NCBI GenBank assembly: GCA_963675595.2
Contig: CAXXLZ010000002.1
Coordinates: 2,080,001 to 2,144,000 of the forward strand
From: Thermodesulfobacteriota bacterium
GTDB lineage: Bacteria; Desulfobacterota; Desulfarculia; JACQYL01
DNA length: 64,000 bases
Direction: 5' to 3'
Both the position numbers and the translations under genes were made by a program. Positions 22,488 to 39,124 of the stretch are shown here, piece by piece; the first letter of the stretch is position 1, and every line of letters starts with the position of its first letter. Below the pieces are notes generated by a model. That model was not told the origin of the DNA. It worked only from the letters and a program-made list of their open reading frames with translations, and made no database searches.

Positions 22488-22940
22488 TTACTTCAGGGTT
22501 TCAACCCACTCTTCCACCCGGGCCTTGATTTCGTCCCTGACGTGCCGGGTCTGTTCCAACACCTCTTCATGGGTGCCTTGAAACCTGGAGGGGTCGGCAA
22601 AGGATCGATGAATCCTCGAGGCGATGCCGGGAAATACGGGGCACTCCCCCTCCGCTCCGTCATCGCATACCGTGATCACGTGGTCGAAGAGCCTGCCCTG
22701 CTTGAAGAACTCGAAAACGCTTTTTGATCTGTTTTTCGACAAGTCGTATCCGATTTCCTTCATGACCTCGATGACTACCGGATTCACGGGGCCGGGTTCG
22801 AAACCCGCGCTCTCCGCCACAAACCTCCCTTTCCCGAGGGCGTTCATGAACGCTTCCCCCATCTGGCTCCTGGCCGAGTTGTGCGTGCAGATGAACAATA
22901 CCCGAACTCCGTCTTTCATGCGTTCCTCCACAATATCCAC
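22488..22940 (-). CDS. arsC: arsenate reductase, LMW-PTP/thioredoxin-coupled type
   Basis: LFICTHNSARSQM P-loop, VITVCD, ECPVFPG, DP. Confidence 0.9.
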   Translation of the reverse strand: MDIVEERMKDGVRVLFICTHNSARSQMGEAFMNALGKGRFVAESAGFEPGPVNPVVIEVMKEIGYDLSKNRSKSVFEFFKQGRLFDHVITVCDDGAEGECPVFPGIASRIHRSFADPSRFQGTHEEVLEQTRHVRDEIKARVEEWVETLK

Positions 22941-22980
22941 GTTTCAATAGAGAAGACCGGCGCCGGCTTTTGAAGGGTTT

Positions 22981-23484
22981 TTATCGGCCTCGGTCTTTCG
23001 CCTGCATCAACCACTCTTTGATCTTGGCTTTGGTGGGCGCTCGTCCCACGCACATCACCTTTCCGTCGACGACCAGAGCCGGCGTTCCCATAACCCCGTA
23101 ACGGGCGATCTCACGGATGTCCCGCACGTGATCGACCGACGCCTCGATCCCCAATTCCTGAACCACTTCCATGACGTCGCGTTCGATCCGATCGCATTGC
23201 GCACACCCTTGTCCCAGGACTTCCACCACCGGATGCCCCGACAACGCATCCTCGCAAGATTCCCCGTGGAATTTCAGAAATTCCCGGTAAACGGCGTCTC
23301 GGTATTCCTCCTCGGCCGCCGCCGGGACATAGTTCTTCTCCTTCAGCGCGGCCAACAGGGCCGATTCGATTTCCGATCGTGGGCTTTCCTTCAGGGAGGG
23401 GCCCAGAGACTCCAGAATTTCCGTGAAGCCGGTCAGTCCCACGACGGCGTTTCCAATGCGTACCCGTTTCACCGACAAGGCCAA
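22981..23484 (-). CDS. thioredoxin-like (MTH895-type) protein with N-terminal extension
   Basis: VEVLGQGCAQC, YGVMGTPALVVDG; start reassigned to TTG 23484. Confidence 0.8.
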   Translation of the reverse strand: MALSVKRVRIGNAVVGLTGFTEILESLGPSLKESPRSEIESALLAALKEKNYVPAAAEEEYRDAVYREFLKFHGESCEDALSGHPVVEVLGQGCAQCDRIERDVMEVVQELGIEASVDHVRDIREIARYGVMGTPALVVDGKVMCVGRAPTKAKIKEWLMQAKDRGR

Positions 23485-23656
23485 GTACGATCTCCCTCTG
23501 AAGCTAATAGTTGCGGAGTGCAGCCTAATCTTGTCACAAACTCGTCTTTTTTGTGACAAAGTCCCCTTTTCTTCCCACAATCGGACCTTCGCCGCGTGGC
23601 CGCGTCCCACAGGGCCGCCCGGGGATCGAACTCGCCCGGTCGGCCTCAATCGGTCG

Positions 23657-24052
23657 TCATTTCAGGCCCATTTCCCGCAGCTTCTTCTCGATGAAATACC
23701 GGTCCAGGAAGCCTTCAAACCGGTAACGTTCCTTTCCCGAAGCATCGAAAAAAACCAGCGTGGGAATCGTACGGATACGGTACTCTTTCGCGAGATTCCG
23801 ATGCTTGCCCACGTGCACGAAATCGATGAAGGCCCGGTCCTTGTATTTTTCCTTCAGGTCGCGGATGACGGGTCGGAGCATCTTGCAGGGTATGCAGTTG
23901 TCGGCCCCGAAATCCAGCAGCGTCACCATGCCGGGAACCGGAAGTTCGGGCGGATTTTCTTGGGCACCGGAGCCGGACACCTGCAGGAACAGAACAAAAC
24001 AAACCCACAGAAAGATCGTGACCGGCCGTTTCGGATTCTTATTCCCACGCAT
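23657..24052 (-). CDS. exported thioredoxin family protein
   Basis: Signal peptide; DFGADNCIPCK, IPTLVFFD. Confidence 0.85.
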   Translation of the reverse strand: MRGNKNPKRPVTIFLWVCFVLFLQVSGSGAQENPPELPVPGMVTLLDFGADNCIPCKMLRPVIRDLKEKYKDRAFIDFVHVGKHRNLAKEYRIRTIPTLVFFDASGKERYRFEGFLDRYFIEKKLREMGLK

Positions 24053-24064
24053 GTCGGGTCCTCG

Positions 24065-24784
24065 TCAGGGTTCGAACCCTCCGTCCACAAAAGGCCGTGC
24101 AATGAAGTAGATGCCCATGATCCCGATGACCACCCCGGCCAGTCGCCGAAACCAAATACCGGCGGTGATGAAACGCTCGCTTTCCAGCAGCCGCCCGACC
24201 CCGGCGGTGAAGCTGCCCGCCACGGCAATGGGGATGCAATGGCCGATGCCGAACAGAAGGATCAGGACCAGTCCCGTGACAATCTTCTCCTGGACCGTAA
24301 TGACCGCCAGAATGGGCGCGATGAAACCGAAGGTGCACGTGCCCGACAGGACACCATAGGCCAGCCCCAGCAGGAAGGCGCCTCCCATCCCCCGAAACCG
24401 AAGCGATCCCATCCGGTTGCCGCTCATCAGGGACCCCGTCAAACCAAGCATGTCCAGGGCGATCCACACGAGTAAGGCCCCCAGGAGAAGGGTCCAGTAG
24501 GGGCTCACTTCGCCCAGCATACGGCCCAGCACAGAACAGATCACCCCCACCACGGCAATGGTGATGAAGAGGCCTACGGTGAACACGCCGGCGTAACCGG
24601 CGGCTTTCCTCGCGTCGGGAATTCTTTCCTGCCCGGCCACATAGGTCACGATGAGAGGAATGGAGGCCAGATGGCAGGGGCTGAGCACCACGCTGATGAC
24701 TCCCCACAGAAAGCATCCCAGGGCCGCGGCAAGGGTGCCGCCGGTCATCCACTGGTGCACCGTCAAAAAAAACGATTCAAACAT
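24065..24784 (-). CDS. ccdA: CcdA/DsbD-type transmembrane electron transporter
   Basis: LSPCHLASIP, GTCTFGF; six TMs. Confidence 0.85.
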   Translation of the reverse strand: MFESFFLTVHQWMTGGTLAAALGCFLWGVISVVLSPCHLASIPLIVTYVAGQERIPDARKAAGYAGVFTVGLFITIAVVGVICSVLGRMLGEVSPYWTLLLGALLVWIALDMLGLTGSLMSGNRMGSLRFRGMGGAFLLGLAYGVLSGTCTFGFIAPILAVITVQEKIVTGLVLILLFGIGHCIPIAVAGSFTAGVGRLLESERFITAGIWFRRLAGVVIGIMGIYFIARPFVDGGFEP

Positions 24785-24841
24785 GGGCGGCCCTTTCAAG
24801 GAGACAATTCACCGCCGGCTTTTCGCCGTAGTCCGCCGCGA

Positions 24842-25261
24842 TCACTTCGCATTCTCCGCGGTCGAGGAGTCCGGACGCGGGACGCCCATGTCGTCCAGAC
24901 GCTTGACGATGCTTTCCTTGTCCATGAAACCCACATGACGATAGACTTCATTCCCGTCTTTGTCGAAAAAGACCTGGGTCGGAATCCCACGAATTCTGTA
25001 TTGACGCGCCAAGTCCGAATTGTAGCGAATGTCAACCAGAATGACGGCGGCCCTGCCCTTGTATTCGGCGTGAAGCTCTTTCATGATGGGCTCCATCATT
25101 TTACAGGGAATACAGGTCGCGGCGCCGAAGTCGATCATGTTCACGGTGCCTTTGATGGGCAATTCGTCGAAGCAAAAAGCTTGATCCCATGAAATCAGGA
25201 ATCCGGCCAATATCAGCATGAAGACGAGGCCCAGTTTGCTTCTATTGGATTGAAACACCAC
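24842..25261 (-). CDS. exported thioredoxin family protein
   Basis: DFGAATCIPCK, IPTQVFFD; paralog of 23657; start uncertain. Confidence 0.82.
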   Translation of the reverse strand: MVFQSNRSKLGLVFMLILAGFLISWDQAFCFDELPIKGTVNMIDFGAATCIPCKMMEPIMKELHAEYKGRAAVILVDIRYNSDLARQYRIRGIPTQVFFDKDGNEVYRHVGFMDKESIVKRLDDMGVPRPDSSTAENAK

Positions 25262-25457
25262 TTCCCCTTCCTTTCTTTTTCGATTCGTCATGTAGGGTTC
25301 GTTACGTTCATCTTGAGCCGGCAACCGGCCTTTTTCAACGGGCCGCGAAGTTTTCACGATCGACTTGTTGTCCTTCAAGCCCACGTGCGGCGGACTTCTT
25401 CCGCGGAATGATGAGAAAACCGGACTCCCTGCCTTCCGCGGCGAAGGTCCTTTTCCC

Positions 25458-26663
25458 TCATGCAGGGGCTTTCCCGCGAAACCAGTGGGGAGTCGCCAGG
25501 CAGATTTTCACCAGCATGAGCATGACCGGCACCTCGATGAGCACCCCCACCACCGTGGCCAAGGCCGCGCCGGAAGAAAGCCCGAAAAGCATCACCGCCG
25601 TGGCGATGGCCACCTCGAAATGATTCGACGCTCCAATCATGGCCGAGGGGGCCGCGTCTTCATAGGTCAGCCCCAACCATTTGGCCAAGCCGTAAGCCAG
25701 CCAGAAGATCAGATTGGTCTGAATGAACAGAGGAACGGCGATCCACAGAATGGTTAAAGGATTGGCGGTAATCACGTCGCCCTTGAAGGAGAAGAGCAAC
25801 ACAAGGGTGATGAGCAGGGCCGTGATGGTGACGGGGGTGAGGATGTGAAGGAACTTCTCCTTGAACCAGGTTTCTCCTTTGGCCGCGATGATCCACTTAC
25901 GCGATAGGTAACCCGCGGCCAAAGGCAACGCGACGTAGGCGCCGATGGACAACAGCAGCGCTTCCCAGGGTACCGGAAGACGACCCACCCCCAGAAGAAA
26001 GCCGCCCAACAGACCGTAGAGAAAAAGCATGGTCAAGGAGTTGATGGCTACCATGACCAGTGTGTGACCGTCGTTCCCACGAGCAAGGAACCCCCATACC
26101 AGGACCATGGCCGTACAGGGGGCGATACCCAGCAGGATGCAACCGGCCAGGTAACTCCGCCATAGAGGGACTTGCAGCATCTTCATGCCGTCCACCATTA
26201 CAACCGTCCCCGAGCCGTGCTCAGCTCCCACCGGAAGGTCGAGCCCGAACGGCATTTTCACGTAATCCACCGCTTCGGGGCCGATGAAAGAGTAAAACAG
26301 CGTTCCAAGAAAAAACAACCCAATGGCGTACATGGTGAAGGGTTTGATGAGCCAGTTCACCACCAGGGTCAGTCCCACCGGCTTCACGCTTTTCCCCGCC
26401 CGGATCACTTCCGAGAAATCGATCTTGACCATGATGGGGTACATCATGAAGAACAAGCAGACGGCGATGGGGATGGATACCACGGGAGCCTCCCCCACAC
26501 GAACGGTCAGGCCGTCCAGAAAGCGGGCCACGCCGGGAGCCGATCGGCCGAGCAGGATGCCCCCGAGGATGCACAAAGCCACCCACACGTAAAGGTACCG
26601 TTCGAAAAACGAAAGACCCTTTCCTTTGAGGGATTCGGTGTTACGCCCCGTTTCTCCCGCCAT
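25458..26663 (-). CDS. acr3: Acr3-family arsenite efflux transporter
   Basis: [46 protein letters not shown]. Confidence 0.95.
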
Positions 26664-26786
26664 TTCCCTTCCTCCCGGCGTAACAGGCTTTTTTAAACGG
26701 GCTGGTAAGACCATGTGAGGGGTTCCGCTCAGGCCCTACATGGCCGCCATACGAAATGGTTCCCTAAGAGGCCTGCAATCCCGCCG

Positions 26787-27311
26787 TCAATCGTCGAATT
26801 GAAACTTCGCCAAATAAGCCTCCAACCGATTCCGTCGATCGCCGTCAATTGGAGGACAATCCTGAGCCCCCTTGACGCCCTCGGCGGCACGCACGGCAAA
26901 CACCATGCAGGTAGGCTGACCGCATTCCCCGCAGTTGGTGCCCGGCAGCAGCTTTAGGATATCCAACACCTTGGGCCTGCCGGCCGCCGTAGTGCTGGGT
27001 TCAATTTCAGCGCGCTGATCCCAGGTTTCGTTGATTTCTCTGCGAAGCCACTCCAGGATTCGATCGGCTTCCTCTTCGTCCTTCAACGCGTTGATGGCGA
27101 TTTCCCGGGCGTGAACCGTAATCAATCTGCCTTGGACGCGGAAAGTGACCGACGGAGGACTCTGGGTATACTGGAATCCTCCCAGCCTGGAGTTCAGATA
27201 GGGGAGAACTTCGGCCACGTCCTCCTCCAGATGGGCCACGCAATGTACGGATTGGAAACTCGGATTGCATTTGGGCCGGAAGATGTCCTTCCGGTAGGAC
27301 TTGAGCAGCAT
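26787..27311 (-). CDS. putative Fe-S cluster-binding protein (ars-operon associated)
   Basis: LPGTNCGECGQPTCMVFA...CP C-terminal motif; SD GGAGG region. Confidence 0.8.
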   Translation of the reverse strand: MLLKSYRKDIFRPKCNPSFQSVHCVAHLEEDVAEVLPYLNSRLGGFQYTQSPPSVTFRVQGRLITVHAREIAINALKDEEEADRILEWLRREINETWDQRAEIEPSTTAAGRPKVLDILKLLPGTNCGECGQPTCMVFAVRAAEGVKGAQDCPPIDGDRRNRLEAYLAKFQFDD

Positions 27312-27444
27312 ATCTTTCCTCCTTTCCCTCCCCCGACGAACGGGACGCGCGACTCGGCGGCACTCCGGCGTCCGCCTGAGGCGGATTTCCGGAAACGTAC
27401 CCGAGATAAGGAATCCGTACAGATAAGGATGAGTGCCCGGAGGC

Positions 27445-27867
27445 TCAGGCGCAGCAGGAGGAAGCACCCCCGGAAGGGTCGGTTCCCGCCGGCGAGGTCG
27501 AAGCCGTCTCTCGGGCCGCGTTTTTCACTCGCTCGATTTCTTCCTCGACCAAGTCGAAATTCTTGTTCTTCTCGATTCCCAGATCCGTGATCACCAGATA
27601 ACCCCGCAAAGGCACGCCCGCTTTCTCAAAAATGGCCTTGGCACACCCCACGGAACAACCGTCGATGACCACCAGCCCGGAAACGTCTTTCGCGGATTGA
27701 ACGAAACCGCTGAGTTCCCCGCCGATACCGGCAAGACAAAACATGCGACCAAAGCCCTCCCGCGTCAATTCCACGGCCGCCCGGTTGGACAACTGACCTA
27801 CGTTGGAGCCTCCCGAACACGACAGAATCATGGTGCTCGAGCCTTGGGCGCAGCATTCCGAACTCAT
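27445..27867 (-). CDS. DGC-domain putative zinc-binding protein
   Basis: CSGGSNVGQ, CLAGIG, IDGCSVGC; terminal CC pairs. Confidence 0.85.
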   Translation of the reverse strand: MSSECCAQGSSTMILSCSGGSNVGQLSNRAAVELTREGFGRMFCLAGIGGELSGFVQSAKDVSGLVVIDGCSVGCAKAIFEKAGVPLRGYLVITDLGIEKNKNFDLVEEEIERVKNAARETASTSPAGTDPSGGASSCCA

Positions 27868-27892
27868 GGCATTTCCTCCTTTGGACGTTTGC

Positions 27893-28132
27893 TCAATTCG
27901 CCTCTGAGATCCAGGTCTTCACCTGGTCTATGGTGGGAACTTTGCCCGAAATCTTCACCTTACCGTCCACAACCACACCGGGGGTGGCGAAGATGCCGAA
28001 CTTGGCGATGTCCAACGGGTTTCCAACCTTTTCTATATGAGCATCCACTCCCGTCTCCGCTACGGCCTCGGCCACCACCTTCTCCGTCTGCTTACATTTG
28101 GCGCATCCGGGTCCCAACACTTTGATATCCAT
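27893..28132 (-). CDS. MTH895-family small redox-active disulfide protein
   Basis: IKVLGPGCAKC, TPGVVVDG. Confidence 0.9.
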   Translation of the reverse strand: MDIKVLGPGCAKCKQTEKVVAEAVAETGVDAHIEKVGNPLDIAKFGIFATPGVVVDGKVKISGKVPTIDQVKTWISEAN

Positions 28133-28194
28133 CTGAACCTCTCCTTAAGTTTATCATTTATCGGCTTCGTTGTTTCTTTTCACGATGAATCCGA

Positions 28195-29370
28195 TCACGC
28201 TCCCACCAGCGCACCGTAGACAATCCCGGCGATGGTCGACAAAATCACGATGATTCCACAGAACACGACCGTCTTTTTCGCCCCCATGACTCCCGCGATG
28301 ACCAGCATGTTGGGTAGAGAAAGCGCCGGCCCCGCCAGCAAGAGCGCCAGCGCCGGCCCCTTCCCCATGCCGGCTCCCAGCAATCCCTGAAGGATGGGAA
28401 CCTCCGTCAAGGTGGCGAAGTACATGAAGGCTCCGGCCACGGCCGCGAACAGGTTCGCCCAGATTGAATTTCCTCCCACCAAGGTCTGTACGTAGGCTTC
28501 CGGAATCAGGGCCGGGTGCCCCGGACGCCCCAACAGAAATCCGGCCACCAGGACCCCCGCTCCCAGCAAAGGGAAGATCTGTTTCATGAATCCCCAGGAG
28601 GAGTCCACCCAATCGATCCGTTCCTCTTTGGAGAACCATTTCATCAGCATCAGAAACATCACCCCCAGAAACACGGCGGTCAGCACCCATTTGACCCTGA
28701 AGATCGCGGCCCACAGACCGCCCTCACCGGGGGCAGGCTGTGCAAAAGCGGCAAACACCAGGATCAACACGAGAGACAATACGAAGAGGGCGTCCTGCGT
28801 GAGCGTTCGCCCTTTCTCTTCCTCGTCGGGAAGGACAATGTCGCCTGCGAGGCGCGCGGCATCGTCTTTCCTGAAAATGAGAGCCATGAGCAATCCCGTG
28901 ACCACGGCGAAGATCACCGCGCCTATGGCTCGGGCGAGGCCCAATTGCCATCCCAGGACCCGGGCCGTAAGCACAATGGCCAGCACGTTGATGGCCGGTC
29001 CCGAGTAGAGGAAGGCCGTTGCCGGTCCGATGCCCGCGCCTCGGGTGAAGATGCCGGCGAACAAGGGGAGAACGGTGCAGGAGCAAACGGCCAGAATGGT
29101 TCCGGAAACCGACGCCACCGAATAGGACACGAACTTGTTGGCCTGAGCCCCGAAGTATTTGAGCACCGACGCCTGGGACACGAAAACCGCAATGGCCCCG
29201 GCGATGAAGAAAGCGGGAATCAGGCAGGTGAGCACGTGCCGGCGGGCGTAGTCCTGGAGCATGAGAAAGGCTTCCAGTCCCGATTGCCTGATTACGGGGG
29301 AACTCCAGGGCACGAAGTACGCGGCGGCGAACACGGAAACAATGAGCAACAGCTTGGACTTTTCGGACAT
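28195..29370 (-). CDS. ArsP/DUF318-family permease
   Basis: AVCSCTVLP, FLYSGPAINV, MYFATLTEVP, GPALSLP. Confidence 0.88.
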   Translation of the reverse strand: MSEKSKLLLIVSVFAAAYFVPWSSPVIRQSGLEAFLMLQDYARRHVLTCLIPAFFIAGAIAVFVSQASVLKYFGAQANKFVSYSVASVSGTILAVCSCTVLPLFAGIFTRGAGIGPATAFLYSGPAINVLAIVLTARVLGWQLGLARAIGAVIFAVVTGLLMALIFRKDDAARLAGDIVLPDEEEKGRTLTQDALFVLSLVLILVFAAFAQPAPGEGGLWAAIFRVKWVLTAVFLGVMFLMLMKWFSKEERIDWVDSSWGFMKQIFPLLGAGVLVAGFLLGRPGHPALIPEAYVQTLVGGNSIWANLFAAVAGAFMYFATLTEVPILQGLLGAGMGKGPALALLLAGPALSLPNMLVIAGVMGAKKTVVFCGIIVILSTIAGIVYGALVGA

Positions 29371-29385
29371 GGGCTTATCTTCCTA

Positions 29386-29403
29386 TATACCAATATTGGA
29401 ATA
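29386..29403. promoter_or_regulatory. putative ArsR operator (second copy)
   Basis: Imperfect palindrome TATACCAAT-ATTGGAATA, similar to 29758-29775. Confidence 0.55.
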
Positions 29404-29418
29404 TTATGGCCAAAACTT

Positions 29419-29748
29419 TCATCCCAACACTTTGAACGCCCGGCTTCGCTGCTGAATCACTTCCAAGGCGCAATTAAAAAAATTCAACACGCAAGGAGTC
29501 TCCAAATGATAGAAGATTTTGGCGCCGTCTTTGCGGTCGTCGACGATCCCGGCGTTCTTGAGCACGGATAAATGTTTGGACACCGTGGGTTGGCCGACGC
29601 CCAGCCTCTCGGCCAGCTCCCCCACGCACAAATCCTTTTCTCGCAGCGCATCCACGAGCATCAGCCGGGTTTCGTGTGCCAAAGCTTTGGCCACCTGTGC
29701 CCTCAATCGAAAAAGCGCCAATGATTCCGCATTGATTTCGTTTCCCAT
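29419..29748 (-). CDS. arsR: ArsR/SmtB family repressor
   Basis: KALAHETRL, LCVGEL, QPTVSKHLSVLK wHTH; PCVLNFFNC. Confidence 0.92.
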   Translation of the reverse strand: MGNEINAESLALFRLRAQVAKALAHETRLMLVDALREKDLCVGELAERLGVGQPTVSKHLSVLKNAGIVDDRKDGAKIFYHLETPCVLNFFNCALEVIQQRSRAFKVLG

Positions 29749-30012: not shown

Positions 30013-30327
30013 TCAGTTAAAAATTTTGCCCAACAGCCCCTTCTTCCTAGTTTCAGGAACGGGCATGCCCAATTCCCTGCAAATCGCAGTCTCAAGGACA
30101 TTCTCCTCCACGTCCGATCCTTCCACCACGATCTTGTCTCCTACCATGACGGCCGGAGCCACCGGCAAATCCAGTTCAAAATATTCGTCGGTGTTGTACG
30201 CCGCTTTGGGCTTGGATATGGTTTCGATTTCGATTTGGTATTTTCCGCCCAACCTGGGCATCATTTCTTTGAAATGCCTTCAGGGCCTTCCGTTGGGTTC
30301 GTTGAGAAAAAACCTGACCTTTAACAT
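30013..30327 (-). CDS. tsoC: NEPxGxxU-motif selenoprotein (TsoC-like, thioredoxin-like fold), Sec at codon 16
   Basis: SD AGGAG, ATG 30327, MLKVRFFLNEPNGRP-TGA(30280-82)-RHFKEMMPRL in frame with track ORF 30013..30264; hairpin GCCCA-GGT-TGGGC at 30247-30259; family name recalled. Confidence 0.88.
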
Positions 30328-30441
30328 GTTGGCTCTCCTTACCTGATGAACTGCTTAGGCTCCGGTCTTCTGGCAGCCGAATTCCGCGGAGCGGGATCGG
30401 GCCGGAGCCGGTTTTCCCATAGCCTGAATGCCCCCACCAAG

Positions 30442-30948
30442 TTAGAATTTCTGGGTCTTGATGCTGTGGTAGACCGCCTTGCACATGCTGGAAGATCCGC
30501 CCGCAACACCTTCGCGATTCTTGAACCCTTCCGTTTGCTTCAGACTCTCCAGATACGTCTCCGGGTCATCCAGCTCTACCCACGCCTGTTCCACAGGCAC
30601 CTCCGGTCTAATACGGAAAAGCAGGCCGTCCCCGTACGGGTCTTTCACGACCACCCCAGGGTCCTCGGACACGGCCCTGTTGAATCGGATGGTCCCCGCC
30701 ACGGGAGCTTCCAGGTATTTCAGTTTCGTGGTAATGGCCACCCCTATCGCCCGGCCTTTCTCCACCGACTCACCCTCGTTCACCAACTCGCTCAAGTCGA
30801 CAAAGGCGCCTACCAGTACGAGGGTGGGTTCTGCCAGGCCGAAAACCAGCTCCGCGCCTTCCCGGCGTCCCCACAGGCCCTGCTTGGCGTCGTATTTCAA
30901 GTCTTCCGGGATTTCCACCGTTCTCCCTAAAAACTTATCGATGATCAT
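30442..30948 (-). CDS. glycine cleavage H-like (lipoyl-domain) protein
   Basis: IPEDLKY...W...FG, EAPVAGTI..N, DPYGDG.LF GcvH pattern; divergent lipoyl loop ITTK; C-terminal extension with Cys. Confidence 0.75.
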   Translation of the reverse strand: MIIDKFLGRTVEIPEDLKYDAKQGLWGRREGAELVFGLAEPTLVLVGAFVDLSELVNEGESVEKGRAIGVAITTKLKYLEAPVAGTIRFNRAVSEDPGVVVKDPYGDGLLFRIRPEVPVEQAWVELDDPETYLESLKQTEGFKNREGVAGGSSSMCKAVYHSIKTQKF

Positions 30949-30970: not shown

Positions 30971-32755
30971 TCATTCCGGTTTGTGCGTGCCCCCCGCTCT
31001 CCTTGCCGCTCTTGGCTCGGGAGCCGAAACAACCGCATCCATCAACTCCAGGAACCTCGAAGGCGGCACGAAGTCCACCAACCTGAGGTCCCTCCTTTCC
31101 TTTCCATGCCCGTCCAGGAAGACCACCGTGGGAACACCCTTGATTCCGTATTCCCTCAACAGCCGTTCGTTCAGTGGATTTCCACTCTTGGTCACGTCGA
31201 TCTTGACCATGACGACTTCCTCATCTCCCCGCTTCACGATCCGAGGATCATGGAACACTTCCTCATCGAGAGCTCGGCAGGGAGAACACCAATCCGCGTA
31301 GAAGTCCATGATGACGGGCTTGTCGGCTTCCACCGCTTGGCGAAGCAGATCGTCCGAGTAGGCGTGCCAAGAAACGCCGGGACCTCTGACGGCCCATTCC
31401 CCCACCAGAAGGCAGGACACCAGCACACCCAGGATGAGGACTCCTCGTTTCATCCAAACGAAAGCCGAAAAGGCGGCCCTGGTCTTGTCCAACAAGCCCA
31501 GGTGAACGCCGGCCGCCAAAGCGACGCCGGCTGAGAGAAAGACGAAAGTCGTTTCCGACAGAAGCGGCTGAAGGAAGTAGGCCGCCATGCCCACCAGAAT
31601 CCAGCCCATGAGCTTGCGCACCCACACCATCCATTCCCCGGACCGGGGCAGGCGCTCGATCTTTCCTGAGAACAACGCCAGAAGGAACAGCGGAAGGCCG
31701 AGACCGAGGCTTAGGGTGAAAAACACCAGGAATCCCATCCAGGCCGATCCGGTGCTCGCCACCCAGGTGAGCAGTCCCAGAACAAAGGGACCAATGCATG
31801 GGGCGGCCACCACCCCCAGGGTGATCCCCATGAACAGGGATCCGAACCACCCCGCATGCGGTTTGGAGGCGGCTTGCGTCAAGAATCCGGGCAAGCGAAG
31901 CTCCCAGAATCCGAACATGCTGCTCGCGAAAACCAGCAACACCACGGCCACCGTGACAAGCACCGCCGGATTCTGCAGCAATGCTCCTAAAAGACCGCCG
32001 GTAAGGGCGGCGGTGACCCCCAACGCCGAATTGGTGAGGGCGAGCCCGGCCACGTACAAAACGCCGTGCACCACGATCCTTCCTCTCCCGGTCCCCGACC
32101 GGCCGCCGAAGTAGGCGGCCGTAATGGGAATCAACGGGTACACGCAGGGAGTCAGGTTCAGGGCCACGCCACCCAGAAAGATGCCCAGTAGTGTCCACAG
32201 GGCGGCCAACCCGGTGAAGGAACCGGGGGACAATGGCTGCCCGGCGCCTACCGAAGCCTGCGGCTTCGAACTCGCCGTGGGACGCCCCAGTCCTTGCCAC
32301 TCGGGGAATCCCTGAGGATAGCGATATACGTTGCGGTAGCCCAATTGGACGGCCACCCGGGCCGCCGAGTCGCTGCGGACTCAGGTGAGCCCCGCTCAGT
32401 AGAACACAAGGGTCCGATCCCGATCTCCTCCCAAGTAGGCTTTCAGTTCCTCTTTCTTCGTGAAACGGGCCCACCAGGTGGGTTCCATGGGGAAGTTGCC
32501 CGCACCTTGGATATGTCCGGTTCGGTATTCCCATTCCTGACGCGTATCCACCAGAAGGAGTCCCTGACGGTCCTTGCGGTAGCGTTCCCAGAGTTCATCA
32601 GCGTTCATCAGCCGGTAGCCGCCGGCTCGGGCTTCGGCTTCAACGTCCTCCCAAGTTGCCTGTTGTGGAGCCACGGGCCTGCTCGTGTACCACGCGATAC
32701 CGGCGGCGGCCGACATGCAAAGAAGTACTATTATGATCTTATTTATCTTTTTCAT
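30971..32755 (-). CDS. tsoB: rhodanese-DsbD-thioredoxin fusion selenoprotein (TsoB-like), Sec at codons 120 and 125
   Basis: Rhodanese (DTRQEWEYRTGHIQGA) ends TLVFY-TGA-AGLT-TGA-VRSDSAARVAVQLGYRNVYRY, in frame with the DsbD part (LTPCVYP, APCIGP, WCSPC); hairpin at 32349-32365. Confidence 0.88.
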
Positions 32756-32882
32756 GAAGGCATCTCCACTTCGCACCGGTTCCCCGCACCTCCCTTTACT
32801 CCGATGCGGAGGATCCCGGGCCGCCTCTAATTCGCCGTCTCGATAGTCGTTCGTGTCGCCCGACCGGACGTTGTCAGCGGCT

Positions 32883-34010
32883 TCATGTACCGCCCGCGGG
32901 ACTGCACGCGGGCGCTTCCGTCGGTTTGTTCCCGAGTTCGGATACCGGTTTGTTTCCGGGTTCCGCCGCCGGTCGCTCGGACGGGGACATGGAATCGTAA
33001 AGCAGCTTGATCCGTGTGGCTCCCACGGTCATGGCCACCATCATGGCTTCCTTCAGTTCCTCTTCACCGGCTCCCAATTCCCTCGCGACCGCAAGGCAAT
33101 AGTTGGCTCATGGATCGCAGCCGGCGGCCAGGGATGCTCCGAGGGCGATCAAGTGCTTGGTCTTCCGGTCCAGAACACCGTCCGCGTAAACGCCTTCAAA
33201 AAAATCCCCATATTTGTCCAATGGATTCATGTTCGACCCCTTGTCCCTCAAAGAATAAACCGGCGGCGACTCCGCCCGGATCAACACGCCCTTGGTCACG
33301 GGGGAGGAATCGAAACCCGTTTCGGACACCAACTCCACATGCGTGAATCCCGACGCCTGAATCATTTCCAGGAAAACCTTTCCCGGTATCGCGCCGCCCA
33401 GTCAATGGTGCCATTGAGATATCCGGCCGGCCTTGTCGGAAGGCGCCTCGCCCACCAGTACCTGATCCGCGATCATCAGGCGCCCTCCGGGCCTCAGGAC
33501 CCGACGTACCTCGCGAAGCGCCGCCTTCTTATCCCCGATCAGGTTGAACACGCCGTTGGAAAGCACTACGTGGAAACTGCGGTCCGGAAAGGGCAGGTCC
33601 GTGGCGGACCCTTCCAGGAAAGTCACGTTTCCAAACCCGGTCAGGTGCCGGTTCCGCTCCGCTCGGTGCAGCATCTCGGGCGTCATGTCCACTCCGGCGA
33701 CACGCCCCTCGGAACCCGTCATGAAGGCGGCCGCCAGCGAATCCACGCCTCCGCCGCAGCCGATGTCCAGCACGGTTTCGCCTTTTTCCACCGGACCCAG
33801 AAAGAAGGGATTCCCCACACCGCAATAAGACGCTGAGACCTCGTCCGGGAGATTGCGAAGGAAATCGGGGTCATATCCCAACAATTCGAGTCCCTTCCTC
33901 CCCGTGGGATATCGAAACATGCCCTCGGGACTTCCGGCCGCCTTCGAATACCTGGCCCGGATTCCCTCATGAATTTTTTCCAGATCGTCGCCGGATAGTG
34001 TTAGTTCCAC
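32883..34010 (-). CDS. ArsM-like SAM-dependent methyltransferase fused to AhpD/CMD domain; Sec at codons 203 and 301, possibly also 376
   Basis: Three track ORFs (33402..34010, 33108..33365, 32883..33077) are one frame joined by TGA: WHH-U-LGGA and AAGCDP-U-ANYC; SECIS-like hairpins at 33368-33386, 33081-33096, 32857-32870. Confidence 0.85.
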
Positions 34011-34158: not shown

Positions 34159-35543
34159 CATAAGCGCTAACTTAAGCCTTTTGTTTTGGTGAGGTTTATG
34201 GTACCGTTGCCGCCAAAGGAGGTGGCAATGGAGCGTCTCGTTTTTTCCGAGGAAATGGAAGACTGGGAAGTTCTCCAGGGTTTTCTTCCCGATGGCTGGC
34301 AATCCAAAGCAAGGGAACTTGGTGCCGTTGTCAGATACCGTAAGTTCGTGGACGCCGAAGGTCTGTTGCGAACGCTTCTGATCCATCTGGCGGAAGGTTG
34401 CTCACTTCGGCTGACGGCGGCCAAAGCCAGGTTCGGCAACATTACGTCGATTTCCGACGTAGCTCTCCTAAAACGACTGAATAAATGCGGAGAGTGGTTT
34501 CGGTGGATGGCCTTAGGGGTCATGGAGAAATGGTTTCGAAAGCTGCCCGCCGTTGTTTTTGGAGAGAATTCACGCATCAGGTTGATCGATGCCTCCACCA
34601 TTCAAGAACCTGGAAGTACCGGAACGACTTGGAGGGTCCATTATTCCATACAATTGCCTTCGCTGCGCTGCGACGAAGTCTATGTAACAGACCCCAAGAT
34701 CGGAGAATCCTTCACCAATTTCAAAGTCCATGGCGGTGAACTTCTTGTAGCGGATAGAGCCTATTGCACACCAAGAGGAATTCACCATGTCATAGACAAC
34801 GGCGGCGACGTCCTGGTTCGAATGAAACACCGTGTCGCCATGGTGGACAAGCAAGGGGAACGATTCCAATTACTCCCTCATCTAAGGACGTTACGTGTAA
34901 ATAAGCTTGGCGACTGGGATGCATTCGTTCCATTTGAACAACGCTTGGTTGCAGGTAGAATCTGTGCCATCAAGAAGAGCAAAGACGCCACTGAAAAAGC
35001 TCGTAAAGCGATAGAAAAAGAGGCGAGGAAAAAAGGTCGCCAAGTTACTCCGGACACCCTCGAAGCGGCGGCCTACATATTTGTTTTCACAACATTGGGC
35101 CGTGAAATCTCGCCCTCTCAGGTCCTCGAGATGTACCGAGGTCGATGGCAAATTGAACTCGCTTTCAAGCGTCTAAAGTCCATTCTCGGTTTAGGCCATC
35201 TTAGAAAGACCGACATCGAAGGAGCCAAGGCCTGGATCCATGGGAAACTACTGGTGGCTTTCTTAGTGGAGGCCATGATCGCCGCAGGCGAATCTTTTTT
35301 TCCCTGGGGATACCCACTCCAAAAAGAACCACCGTAGAAATCGATGCTTCTGGAGAGAGACCATGTTTATGTTACACCTGCTGAAACAAGCCGTGAACCC
35401 TAAACTCGGCTTGGCCGAATGCATTGCCGGCTGGGATAACATATCTTTTTATTTGCGAGAACCGCCAAGGAAACGAGCACTTCAGCGGCTGATTCCTCAG
35501 ACGGAAAGAAGCATAGCAAACAATGCTTAAGTTAGCGCTTATG
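34159..35543 (+). mobile_element. IS4-family element, copy 1 (1385 bp)
   Basis: Perfect 19-bp IRs CATAAGCGCTAACTTAAGC; 11-bp TSD CCCCCTGCCCC. Confidence 0.95.
34228..35337 (+). CDS. IS4-family DDE transposase
   Basis: IDASTI, ADRAY, YRGRWQIELAFKRLKS; SD AGGAGG. Confidence 0.95.
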   Translation: MERLVFSEEMEDWEVLQGFLPDGWQSKARELGAVVRYRKFVDAEGLLRTLLIHLAEGCSLRLTAAKARFGNITSISDVALLKRLNKCGEWFRWMALGVMEKWFRKLPAVVFGENSRIRLIDASTIQEPGSTGTTWRVHYSIQLPSLRCDEVYVTDPKIGESFTNFKVHGGELLVADRAYCTPRGIHHVIDNGGDVLVRMKHRVAMVDKQGERFQLLPHLRTLRVNKLGDWDAFVPFEQRLVAGRICAIKKSKDATEKARKAIEKEARKKGRQVTPDTLEAAAYIFVFTTLGREISPSQVLEMYRGRWQIELAFKRLKSILGLGHLRKTDIEGAKAWIHGKLLVAFLVEAMIAAGESFFPWGYPLQKEPP

Positions 35544-35555
35544 CCCCCTGCCCCC

Positions 35556-36940
35556 CATAAGCGCTAACTTAAGCCTTTTGTTTTGGTGAGGTTTATGGTA
35601 CCGTTGCCGCCAAAGGAGGTGGCAATGGAGCGTCTCGTTTTTTCCGAGGAAATGGAAGACTGGGAAGTTCTCCAGGGTTTTCTTCCCGATGGCTGGCAAT
35701 CCAAAGCAAGGGAACTTGGTGCCGTTGTCAGATACCGTAAGTTCGTGGACGCCGAAGGTCTGTTGCGAACGCTTCTGATCCATCTGGCGGAAGGTTGCTC
35801 ACTTCGGCTGACGGCGGCCAAAGCCAGGTTCGGCAACATTACGTCGATTTCCGACGTAGCTCTCCTAAAACGACTGAATAAATGCGGAGAGTGGTTTCGG
35901 TGGATGGCCTTAGGGGTCATGGAGAAATGGTTTCGAAAGCTGCCCGCCGTTGTTTTTGGAGAGAATTCACGCATCAGGTTGATCGATGCCTCCACCATTC
36001 AAGAACCTGGAAGTACCGGAACGACTTGGAGGGTCCATTATTCCATACAATTGCCTTCGCTGCGCTGCGACGAAGTCTATGTAACAGACCCCAAGATCGG
36101 AGAATCCTTCACCAATTTCAAAGTCCATGGCGGTGAACTTCTTGTAGCGGATAGAGCCTATTGCACACCAAGAGGAATTCACCATGTCATAGACAACGGC
36201 GGCGACGTCCTGGTTCGAATGAAACACCGTGTCGCCATGGTGGACAAGCAAGGGGAACGATTCCAATTACTCCCTCATCTAAGGACGTTACGTGTAAATA
36301 AGCTTGGCGACTGGGATGCATTCGTTCCATTTGAACAACGCTTGGTTGCAGGTAGAATCTGTGCCATCAAGAAGAGCAAAGACGCCACTGAAAAAGCTCG
36401 TAAAGCGATAGAAAAAGAGGCGAGGAAAAAAGGTCGCCAAGTTACTCCGGACACCCTCGAAGCGGCGGCCTACATATTTGTTTTCACAACATTGGGCCGT
36501 GAAATCTCGCCCTCTCAGGTCCTCGAGATGTACCGAGGTCGATGGCAAATTGAACTCGCTTTCAAGCGTCTAAAGTCCATTCTCGGTTTAGGCCATCTTA
36601 GAAAGACCGACATCGAAGGAGCCAAGGCCTGGATCCATGGGAAACTACTGGTGGCTTTCTTAGTGGAGGCCATGATCGCCGCAGGCGAATCTTTTTTTCC
36701 CTGGGGATACCCACTCCAAAAAGAACCACCGTAGAAATCGATGCTTCTGGAGAGAGACCATGTTTATGTTACACCTGCTGAAACAAGCCGTGAACCCTAA
36801 ACTCGGCTTGGCCGAATGCATTGCCGGCTGGGATAACATATCTTTTTATTTGCGAGAACCGCCAAGGAAACGAGCACTTCAGCGGCTGATTCCTCAGACG
36901 GAAAGAAGCATAGCAAACAATGCTTAAGTTAGCGCTTATG
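35556..36940 (+). mobile_element. IS4-family element, copy 2 (appears identical, tandem)
   Basis: Same IRs; identical ORF set offset by 1397 bp; 11-bp TSD CCCCTGCCCCC. Confidence 0.95.
35625..36734 (+). CDS. IS4-family DDE transposase (identical to copy 1)
   Basis: Identical translation in ORF track. Confidence 0.95.
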   Translation: MERLVFSEEMEDWEVLQGFLPDGWQSKARELGAVVRYRKFVDAEGLLRTLLIHLAEGCSLRLTAAKARFGNITSISDVALLKRLNKCGEWFRWMALGVMEKWFRKLPAVVFGENSRIRLIDASTIQEPGSTGTTWRVHYSIQLPSLRCDEVYVTDPKIGESFTNFKVHGGELLVADRAYCTPRGIHHVIDNGGDVLVRMKHRVAMVDKQGERFQLLPHLRTLRVNKLGDWDAFVPFEQRLVAGRICAIKKSKDATEKARKAIEKEARKKGRQVTPDTLEAAAYIFVFTTLGREISPSQVLEMYRGRWQIELAFKRLKSILGLGHLRKTDIEGAKAWIHGKLLVAFLVEAMIAAGESFFPWGYPLQKEPP

Positions 36941-37081: not shown

Positions 37082-37390
37082 TTATCCTTCCATGGCTTCC
37101 GTCACCGCTGCGGAGAGAGCCCCCATTTCGGGAATGTGGTCGAAGGCAAGGCGTCCGTTGATCACCAGCGATGGAACCGGAGGTTTGTCTCCGCATAGCC
37201 GCTTGAGTTCCTCCTGCCTGGCGAGGCCCTCCCGTTCCCCCACGTCCACCACCGTCCACTCCAATCGCCCCTCGGGCAACTCTTCGGCCAATTCCTCCAA
37301 AACGGCCAATGCCAAATCACACAGCATGCATCCTTTCTTCTTGGCCACGATCTCCACGAATACCCGGCGGTTTTCCAGTGCCATAATCAT
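37082..37390 (-). CDS. thioredoxin/glutaredoxin-like protein (CxxC)
   Basis: VEIVAKKKGCMLCD, VPSLVING; start uncertain. Confidence 0.78.
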   Translation of the reverse strand: MIMALENRRVFVEIVAKKKGCMLCDLALAVLEELAEELPEGRLEWTVVDVGEREGLARQEELKRLCGDKPPVPSLVINGRLAFDHIPEMGALSAAVTEAMEG

Positions 37391-37512
37391 CCCTACGGAC
37401 AATAACGCCTCTCCGAGGTTGCGTTCTCCCCCATGAGGCCTGGTTTCAAACGGTTCCCGCACATTGCGCCTCGCCGGAAGGCACGCTTTCCCCTCCCGGC
37501 GAGCTGCGGATG

Positions 37513-37767
37513 TCAGTCTTCCTCTTCCACCTTGATCCTTACGTCCGCGTAGCGGGTTCTTTTCTTGATCTGAGTGATCAGTTTTTCGGGATCCGTCTGC
37601 GAAGGATCATATTTCACTTTCGCACGTTTAAACACGGTACTGGTCTCGTACTCCAATACACCGGGTGACTCATCCAGAGCCACTTTGACCATGCCTTCTC
37701 AAGTCAGTCACTCCATCCTGGGGATGTAGAACGCCACTTCATTCACGATCGTATTTTCTCCCGACAC
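37513..37767 (-). CDS. heavy-metal-associated (CopZ/MerP-like) selenoprotein with MxUxxU motif; not in ORF track
   Basis: SD AGGAGG, GTG 37767: MSGENTIVNEVAFYIPRME-U-LT-U-EGMVKVALDESPGVLEYETSTVFKRAKVKYDPSQTDPEKLITQIKKRTRYADVRIKVEEED; hairpin GTGGCTC-TGGAT-GAGTCAC at 37665-37683. Confidence 0.87.
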
Positions 37768-37859
37768 GTCCGCCTCCTTTCCACGGCTTCGCATCCTGAT
37801 TCGGGGCGGTCCCCAAAAGGTCAAGCCTTCGCACATCAAGCCGTTTCGAACCCTGATGC

Positions 37860-38210
37860 TCAGAAGTTGAAGACCTGGGCTTCGGCCGCCAGCTCGATGA
37901 GATGCGGTCCTCCGTCCAGCACCATATTGGAGTAGAATTTGGCCTCGTCCACCTGACGAGCGCGGGCGCAGGGAATTCAGACTCCCACGGGGATCTCGTG
38001 CTCCACCAGGTGGGGGAAATAATCGTTGGGACAATCTCCCGTTTTGGTTTTTTCGTTGAAATCCCGGGTGGAATCCGCCCAAAGCGTTCCGTCGTCGATG
38101 AAGAACAGATTGACCGCATGCCCGGCCGCATGGGCCACTTTGGCCAGCTGGAAACAACGCGTAGCCGAGTCCACCTCGTCCCTGCTCAATACAAACAGAA
38201 ATTTCGCCAA
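37860..38210 (-). CDS. DsrE/F-family selenoprotein (UxxC), Sec at codon 78
   Basis: KFLFVLS...VNLFFIDDG...PVGV-TGA-IPCARAR...EAQVFNF; hairpin CTCGTC-AGGTG-GACGAG at 37944-37960. Confidence 0.88.
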
Positions 38211-38264: not shown

Positions 38265-38738
38265 TCAATCGCTTGGAATGGAAGGAATCTTCCCCTCCGT
38301 TGCGAGCTTCTTGATCAAGAAACGGACTCCCGACCCGGAAACGCCCAGGTCTTCGGCAAGGCGAGCCGGATCGGCGCTTCCCTTGCTGCGCACCAAGGCG
38401 AGAACCTCCTCCTCCAGCTCTTCCAGCCAGTCCTCGAAGAGCACCAAAACTTCGGGCTCCGTAACCGCCTTCAATTGTTCGGATCGGCTCACCTTCTCCA
38501 CCAAACTTCGGCACATCTGCGTTGGATCGACACCTTCGTCCATGCATTCGGCCAGTCAACGGTGCACCATGCCGGCGGTCTTTTCATCGGCTCGCTCCCC
38601 GAAGAGTTCGACGACGAACCTGAGACGCTCCTCTTCTTCCATGAGCGCCAGACGTTTTCCGAGCAGGGAGGAAAGCAGGGGAAGCGCGTCCCGGTCTTCC
38701 ATGGAGTCCACCATCCGTTCCAAAGTCTCCAAATTCAT
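38265..38738 (-). CDS. tsoA: TsoA-like (xULAxC motif) selenoprotein with C-terminal winged HTH, Sec at codon 61
   Basis: Track ORFs 38556..38738 and 38265..38543 join as GMVHR-TGA-LAECMDEG; hairpin at 38523-38542 with AGGTG loop; family name recalled. Confidence 0.83.
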
Positions 38739-38758: not shown

Positions 38759-39124
38759 TTAGAAGATTTTGGCCGCTTTCCCGAGATCTTCGGCGAGGGA
38801 GGAAAGGCTCGTCAGGATTTCCCCCACACGTTCATCGGCCGACCGGTAATAAATGAAGGGGCCCCGCCGCTCCACTTGCACCAGAAAGGAACGTTTCAGT
38901 TCTTTGAGATGATGCGAAACCAGGGGTTGGGAGAGGCCGAGTTCCTCCACGATTTTCGACACGCTCTTTTCCTTGCGGCTCACACATAGAAGAATTCTCA
39001 GGCGATTCTCATCGGAAAAGCACTTGGACAGGAAGGCGACACCCTGAAGGTTCAGTGAATCCACGAGCCGCGTTGCGGAATCGACGGGCATGGGCGTCTG
39101 ATTTCGAGACGGAGGTTCAAGCAT
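38759..39124 (-). CDS. ArsR/SmtB family regulator heading the selenoprotein operon
   Basis: FSDENRLRIL, LSQPLVSHHLKELK, RRGPFIYY; start uncertain. Confidence 0.9.
   Translation of the reverse strand: MLEPPSRNQTPMPVDSATRLVDSLNLQGVAFLSKCFSDENRLRILLCVSRKEKSVSKIVEELGLSQPLVSHHLKELKRSFLVQVERRGPFIYYRSADERVGEILTSLSSLAEDLGKAAKIF

Follow-up and report, generated by a model that had tools for sequence, protein, structure and literature searches.

The HMA-domain gene lies in a Tso/ArsM-AhpD gene cluster

The window analyzed here (64,000 nucleotides; positions 2,080,001 to 2,144,000 of contig CAXXLZ010000002.1) contains a run of genes in the order TsoR, TsoA, DsrE (UxxC), HMA, thioredoxin, a pair of IS4 copies, ArsM-AhpD, TsoB, a GcvH-related gene, and TsoC, followed by arsenic-type genes. 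All are encoded on the minus strand except the IS4 pair. The run begins with TsoR, an ArsR/SmtB-type regulator (38759..39124; NF045707, 143.8 bits against a cut-off of 115), and TsoA, a selenoprotein with one TGA (38265..38738; NF045695, 195 bits against 170). Directly upstream of the HMA gene is a DsrE-family gene with a UxxC motif (37860..38210; TGA at 37977-37979), which passes the Pfam DsrE cut-off (63 bits against 22.7) and no NCBIfam cut-off. Close relatives of this DsrE protein precede thioredoxin-ArsM in other genomes. The HMA gene is followed by a gene for a small thioredoxin-like protein with CxxC (37082..37384), which is related to HUIPC and scores below the cut-off of that family (NF047660, 52.9 bits against 105). 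The thioredoxin gene is separated from that of the methyltransferase by two IS4 copies in tandem (34159..36940, plus strand), which have inverted ends of 22 nt. The IS4 pair is absent from the runs of two other studies, in which the genes occur in joined form, and the thioredoxin and methyltransferase genes were therefore neighbors. The remainder of the run encodes an ArsM-like methyltransferase/AhpD selenoprotein (32874..34010; NF041537, 515 bits against 510), TsoB, a rhodanese/DsbD selenoprotein with UxxxxU (30971..32755; NF045694, 955 bits against 805), and a GcvH-related protein with the TsoC selenoprotein (30013..30948; over the NF045810 and NF045708 cut-offs). The arsenic-type genes downstream (22488..29748) include ArsR, an ArsP_1 permease, Acr3 (374.9 bits against 282.8), thioredoxins, and an ArsC-like gene that is below its cut-off.

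The cluster is of the described Tso/ArsM-AhpD kind, because TsoR, TsoA, TsoB, TsoC, and ArsM-AhpD (NF045707, NF045695, NF045694, NF045708, and NF041537) all pass their NCBIfam cut-offs. The Tso families are attributed to Haft and Tolstoy (2025) in a review (PMC13188914). The HMA gene stands outside the Tso core: it was found in only 1 of 37 other TsoA neighborhoods, which span 4 to 19 kb and are in some cases cut by contig ends, and we rejected it as a Tso core gene.

A small HMA-fold protein with two in-frame TGA codons

The HMA-domain gene (37513..37767, minus strand) is missing from the annotation. It starts with GTG at 37767, extends over 84 codons, and stops with TGA at 37513-37515; a Shine-Dalgarno sequence, AAAGGAGG (37773..37780), is located 5 nt before the start. 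The 84-aa product has no leader peptide and carries the motif M18-E-U20-L-T-U23, in which codons 20 (37708..37710) and 23 (37699..37701) are TGA and are predicted to encode selenocysteine (Sec). Both align with the cysteines of the HMA domain, so UGA occurs at positions of conserved Cys in homologues. With U read as C, the protein matches Pfam HMA (PF00403) with 40.9 bits (E 2.7e-10; cut-off 24.8), and two of its homologues score 34.4 and 25.0 bits. A sequence-only reading of this DNA had proposed an 84-aa gene with a strong Shine-Dalgarno sequence, an HMA pattern, and TGA at both Cys positions, and all three proposals are borne out by the reading frame, the profile match, and the predicted fold.

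An AlphaFold model built on a 9-row alignment (mean pLDDT 88.4, pTM 0.75) predicts a ferredoxin-like fold with strands at residues 9-14, 37-43, and 48-53, helices at 21-32 and 60-71, and a short last strand. In the model, the M-x-C-x-x-C-type motif precedes helix 1, and the UxxU residues fall at the start of this helix, where HMA domains bind metal. The closest structural match to the model is MerP (1osd; E 4.9e-6, rmsd 1.0), and the next are copper ATPase domains and CopZ.

Several trivial explanations of the TGA pair were examined and rejected. Genome-wide, an HMA profile built in this analysis matched only 1 of 5358 TGA-N6-TGA sites, namely this gene, which together with the recurrence of TGA/TGA in 9 of 9 homologues rules out a chance pair. 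Sequencing error is ruled out because the contigs of three runs, which belong to three studies, are identical at both codons, although one of these runs (X1) may be the source sample. The plus strand yields no family-like product. Read-through of the final TGA is unlikely, since homologues stop at about the same point, several of them with TAA or TAG instead of TGA. Just after the stop, at 37465-37512 on the minus strand, is a strong G+C hairpin (about -27 kcal/mol) that is single-copy in the genome and was not picked up as a terminator.

The double-TGA subfamily is rare

Homologues of the window protein form a subfamily of 78 to 84 aa without a leader, on a long branch, with I-P-x-M where G-M is usual. 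Both TGA codons are present in all 9 homologues for which DNA was available; these represent about 6 lineages that are 49-74% identical to each other. Among them is an orthologue in G480, a different genus within the same family; it is about 60% identical and is also TGA/TGA. We also scanned metagenomes with a motif in which each site could be TGA, TGC, or TGT, and obtained 10 matches, distributed over 9 loci. Three of these (L152, L155, and L157) were chance matches outside the HMA family and were removed; the other 7 are subfamily members, and every one has TGA twice. No Cys form of the subfamily came to light. Three of the sequences are almost duplicates, L153 and L158 of G480 and L156a of L151. 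In L156 (L156:104-3504), two UxxU HMA paralogues that are 56% identical flank a DUF1638-thioredoxin-ArsM-DUF169 block.

The subfamily is hidden from protein searches because its database forms are either truncated or altered at the motif. P0004 and P0021 are 57- to 59-aa forms that start at Met26 and do not contain the motif, and in P0023, a tenth protein, both Sec sites are occupied by W, which likely reflects TGA read as Trp by a gene caller. A word-index protein search returned solely the short form of the window protein itself. A subfamily profile detected no further member among 390 phylum genomes; only generic HMA domains were found in 300 phylum genomes, and a search of genome contigs for related loci returned a single generic HMA. 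Taken with the lack of any member in 18 ArsM-like loci read at wide range (see below), these results indicate that the gene is rare and optional.

Predicted decoding of the UGA codons and a SECIS-like hairpin

A single SECIS-like hairpin (37665..37683, minus strand; GTGGCTC-TGGAT-GAGTCAC) follows the two UGAs. The bacterial SECIS consensus is given in PMC13188914 as a loop of 3 to 9 nt with G in the first two loop positions, a stem of 4 to 16 bp, and a distance of 16 to 37 nt from the UGA. The hairpin agrees with this consensus in its 5-nt UGGAU loop, its 7-bp stem, and its distances of 31 and 22 nt from the two codons. The sequence-only reading had placed one hairpin 22 and 31 nt downstream; its single hairpin at consensus distance from both UGAs stands, with the qualification that these values are measured to the loop. 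The folding energy is not better than that of shuffled sequences (z -0.76), and the support for the hairpin therefore comes from its conservation. In 8 of 8 aligned copies the five-pair core is paired, and the loop does not vary. Covariation within the subfamily is weak, with one compensatory change that also alters the amino acid (59 of 500 shuffles); when the distant G028 protein is added, 35 of 35 cells are paired and two compensatory changes are observed (10 of 500 shuffles). Within codons 27-34, 5 of the 6 conserved codons also keep the same third base, compared with 0 of 13 elsewhere (p 5e-4, for a codon window picked after looking at the data).

The genome encodes SelA, SelB, and SelD, all over their cut-offs, and one tRNA-Sec. 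Since the UGAs are conserved, the hairpin is conserved, and the Sec machinery is present, we infer that Sec is very likely inserted at both codons. It is highly improbable, in our estimate, that one or both UGAs are instead read as Cys by a tRNA-ReC (selC*), or are left unread, in a pseudogene or in a gene expressed only as a 59-aa product from Met26. Reading as Cys is a reasonable concern, since PMC13582414 reports an enrichment of tRNA-ReC among genomes that encode UXXU hydrogenases and cautions that a UGA may specify Cys, and the presence of only short forms in databases would fit an unread UGA. However, with 150 of the 1225 Rfam candidates scored, each of the 14 RF01852 matches in the genome proved to be tRNA-Sec or an ordinary tRNA, ARAGORN with default settings found one tRNA-Cys and one tRNA-Sec, nhmmer found no second selC-like gene, and only one SelB is over the cut-off. 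The invariance of E10, I15, P16, and M18, which lie upstream of the UGAs, at 49-74% identity argues against a pseudogene.

The possibility that one SECIS serves two UGAs is raised in PMC13582414. The 84-aa protein offers a compact test of whether a single bacterial SECIS can decode a pair of UGAs spaced 9 nt apart, and likewise of the effect of a diselenolate on the MerP/CopZ site. As a separate observation, the genome has both tRNA-Pyl and tRNA-Sec (G000:C2:125847-125918 and C1:971408-971505) and several corrinoid-protein paralogues.

Comparison with known HMA families

HMA proteins with two Sec residues are a known kind, because the family NF041115 (UxxU_metal_bind) and MerP selenoproteins have already been catalogued. 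NF041115, named "metal-binding (seleno)protein," is likewise an HMA domain with UxxU/CxxC at the same place, and Table 1 of PMC13188914 lists it as a putative mercuric reductase with UxxU and 2 Sec. The term "UxxU" is absent from the main text of PMC1976440, which the review cites for the UxxU family. MerP selenoproteins are listed in PMC2398784. The rarity of UxxU motifs, asserted in the sequence-only reading, agrees with the table of a 2026 review, which gives the motif for 3 of 119 families.

Although NF041115 is among the two best NCBIfam matches of the window protein (E 5.2e-10), the score is 39.3 bits against a cut-off of 95, and six scanned subfamily members score 35.6 to 44.9 bits. The five over-cut-off NF041115 matches in 401 phylum genomes have a hydrophobic N-terminal leader and Cys codons, whereas the window subfamily has no leader. 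In a quick tree (69 rows and 82 columns) whose deep forks are not resolved, the subfamily forms its own long-branch clade (support 99) apart from the over-cut-off NF041115 members. MerP (TIGR02052; PDB 1osd and 1afi) shares the predicted fold, with an rmsd of 1.0 between the model and 1osd; membership was rejected at 29.9 bits against a cut-off of 92.55, and the window protein has no leader and no mer genes among its annotated neighbors. The cytoplasmic copper chaperones CopZ/Atx1 (NF033794, NF033795, and NF047957) are likewise small, stand-alone, leaderless HMA proteins. The window protein differs from them in having Sec codons in place of Cys and no copper ATPase seen beside the gene, and its scores of 17.5 to 25.6 bits fall short of the cut-offs of 85 to 95. 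By these sequence comparisons, the window protein represents a separate leaderless double-Sec HMA subfamily that belongs to neither NF041115, MerP, nor CopZ.

A distinct subfamily is thereby added that is unnamed in NCBIfam 20.0 and occurs in protein databases only in truncated or mistranslated form. We found no description of a leaderless UxxU HMA protein beside ArsM in the literature covered, a scope outside which lie Haft and Tolstoy (2025) and supplements, either of which may mention one; PMC13326102 contained no matching term. A MerP-like UxxU gene with a leader (G028, L150:1477-1779) was observed in a MerR-MerT operon. It scores 80.8 bits to NF041115, below the cut-off, and its hairpin has the same spacing as that of the window gene, with compensatory changes.

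Association with thioredoxin and an ArsM-like methyltransferase

At 7 of the 8 loci, the HMA gene has beside it the genes for the thioredoxin and the ArsM-like Sec methyltransferase (4 of 5 when loci are counted by lineage); the eighth locus, L154, has little usable sequence downstream. DsrE with UxxC is present in 5 of the 8 HMA loci, and an MtaA/CmuA-like methyltransferase (URO-D family, below the cut-off) lies directly upstream in 3 of the 8, one of which (L159) also has a corrinoid protein and a TsoX-thioredoxin reductase. The full L159 cluster (L159:46-9097) encodes TsoA-like, DsrE (UxxC), corrinoid protein, TsoX-thioredoxin reductase, MtaA-like methyltransferase, HMA (UxxU), thioredoxin, ArsM-AhpD, DJ-1/PfpI, and a CobW-like GTPase. 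The reverse count used 28 other ArsM-like loci from 400 phylum genomes, 18 of them read at about 8 kb on each side. Within this range, 17 of the 18 have no HMA gene, and none has a member of the UxxU subfamily. In L213, a leaderless UxxC HMA gene of another lineage (G024, L213:9083-9328) stands directly upstream of the thioredoxin-methyltransferase pair, so genes of two HMA lineages have come to lie at this place beside the pair.

The proposal of the sequence-only reading that the protein feeds the methyltransferase is therefore upheld in part. The neighbors in 7 of 8 loci and the G024 gene at the same place speak for a link; the 17 of 18 loci without HMA, and a methyltransferase that lacks Cys174, speak against it. 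Adjacency alone may explain the link, because selenoprotein genes cluster in islands.

The missing Cys174 concerns the substrate as well. In CmArsM the arsenic site is Cys174-Cys224, according to PMC6138428. The window enzyme has Gly at the position of Cys174 and Sec at that of Cys224 and does not contain the canonical pair; Gly takes the place of Cys174 in 30 of 30 ArsM-like loci in which the motif was found (33 examined). The substrate may, judging from these residues, be something other than arsenic, since Gly replaces the arsenic-binding Cys174, and the neighborhood makes arsenic a plausible but not a secure cargo. Across the Sec methyltransferase family (window 32874-34010 and loci L168-L196), Sec is mostly found at the Cys224 position. 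The neighborhood of the HMA gene offers a handle on this widespread "ArsM-like" Sec methyltransferase without Cys174.

Proposed role of the double-Sec HMA protein

We propose that the gene encodes a leaderless HMA-fold protein, likely cytoplasmic, in which two UGAs read as Sec under one shared hairpin would create a two-selenolate site. Soft metal and metalloid ions are bound more tightly by selenolates than by thiolates. By analogy with MerP and CopZ, the predicted UxxU site probably binds a metal or metalloid. Its cargo would be a soft metal or a metalloid; a trivalent arsenical is the most likely candidate, although we offer this identification only tentatively and hold it to be somewhat doubtful. 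The protein would then pass this cargo to the neighboring Sec-containing ArsM-like methyltransferase, or buffer it for that enzyme, and the adjacent thioredoxin would keep the selenols reduced. Thioredoxin is named as the likely or proposed reductant for arsenite methyltransferases in PMC6138428. The HMA protein would act as an optional accessory, as ArsD does for ArsA, and not as an obligatory subunit. ArsD is named in PMC6138428 as an As(III) metallochaperone for ArsA, and we suggest it only as a possible analogy of role, that of a small, optional chaperone that assists a metalloid-handling enzyme; it is not among the family matches of the window protein, and the partner here would be a methyltransferase instead of an ATPase. 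As to whether the protein is an optional carrier or buffer for the thioredoxin-methyltransferase module, the arguments for and against are about balanced, and the explanation as a whole, from metal site to methyltransferase, has in our judgment an even chance of being correct.

Alternatively, the protein could, like CopZ, act on its own as a chaperone or sink for Cu(I)/Hg(II); its place next to the methyltransferase would then reflect no more than the gathering of selenoprotein and metal-stress genes in a common island. MerP and copper ATPase domains are indeed the top structural matches, the methyltransferase is usually found without the HMA gene, and many other selenoprotein genes surround the latter. 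Yet no copper ATPase or mer gene occurs among the annotated neighbors of the 8 loci, and the gene follows the thioredoxin-methyltransferase pair and not the Tso core, with a second HMA lineage in the same position; we consider such a chaperone unlikely. A different departure from the carrier scheme would make UxxU a redox or chalcogen carrier on an HMA scaffold instead of a metal site, either as a diselenide/selenol switch or as a sulfur/selenium relay with DsrE and rhodanese, and the methyltransferase may then act on sulfur or selenium species. The missing Cys174 of that enzyme would suit such a role, as would the long branch of the subfamily with its I-P-x-M in place of G-M and the frequency of DsrE (UxxC), present in 5 of 8 loci; in L209 and L212, moreover, DsrE alone precedes the thioredoxin-methyltransferase pair, as if it were an alternative to the HMA protein. 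The motif nevertheless sits at the metal-binding position of HMA domains, at the start of helix 1, and we know of no chalcogen-carrier role for HMA domains, so that we give this reading a low probability.

A more speculative extension of the carrier role draws on the MtaA/CmuA-like gene found directly upstream of the HMA gene at three of the eight loci, and on the corrinoid protein and thioredoxin reductase encoded in one locus. In this reading, which we judge quite improbable, the UxxU protein would be a carrier linking a SAM methyltransferase with a single Sec to methyl transfer by a cobalamin system, and the components would together constitute an undescribed anaerobic route that methylates or demethylates arsenic (or mercury or selenium) species. 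MtaA-linked arsenic methylation is noted in PMC13262295, the mechanism of DMAs demethylation is called unclear in a 2023 paper (PMC10579292), and a similar organometallic role is argued for another selenoprotein cluster in bioRxiv 2022.07.06.499078. A link to corrinoid methyl transfer, if true, would bear on anaerobic arsenic methylation and demethylation.

A minor feature of the ArsM-AhpD frame of the window is its end, which reads T-U-S-R-U (32874-32885, minus strand). The 3′ end is uncertain, with the stop at the TGA at 32885 or 32876, and the first of these TGAs may be a third Sec near the C terminus. The ArsM-AhpD frame of L159 also has S-T-U near its C terminus.
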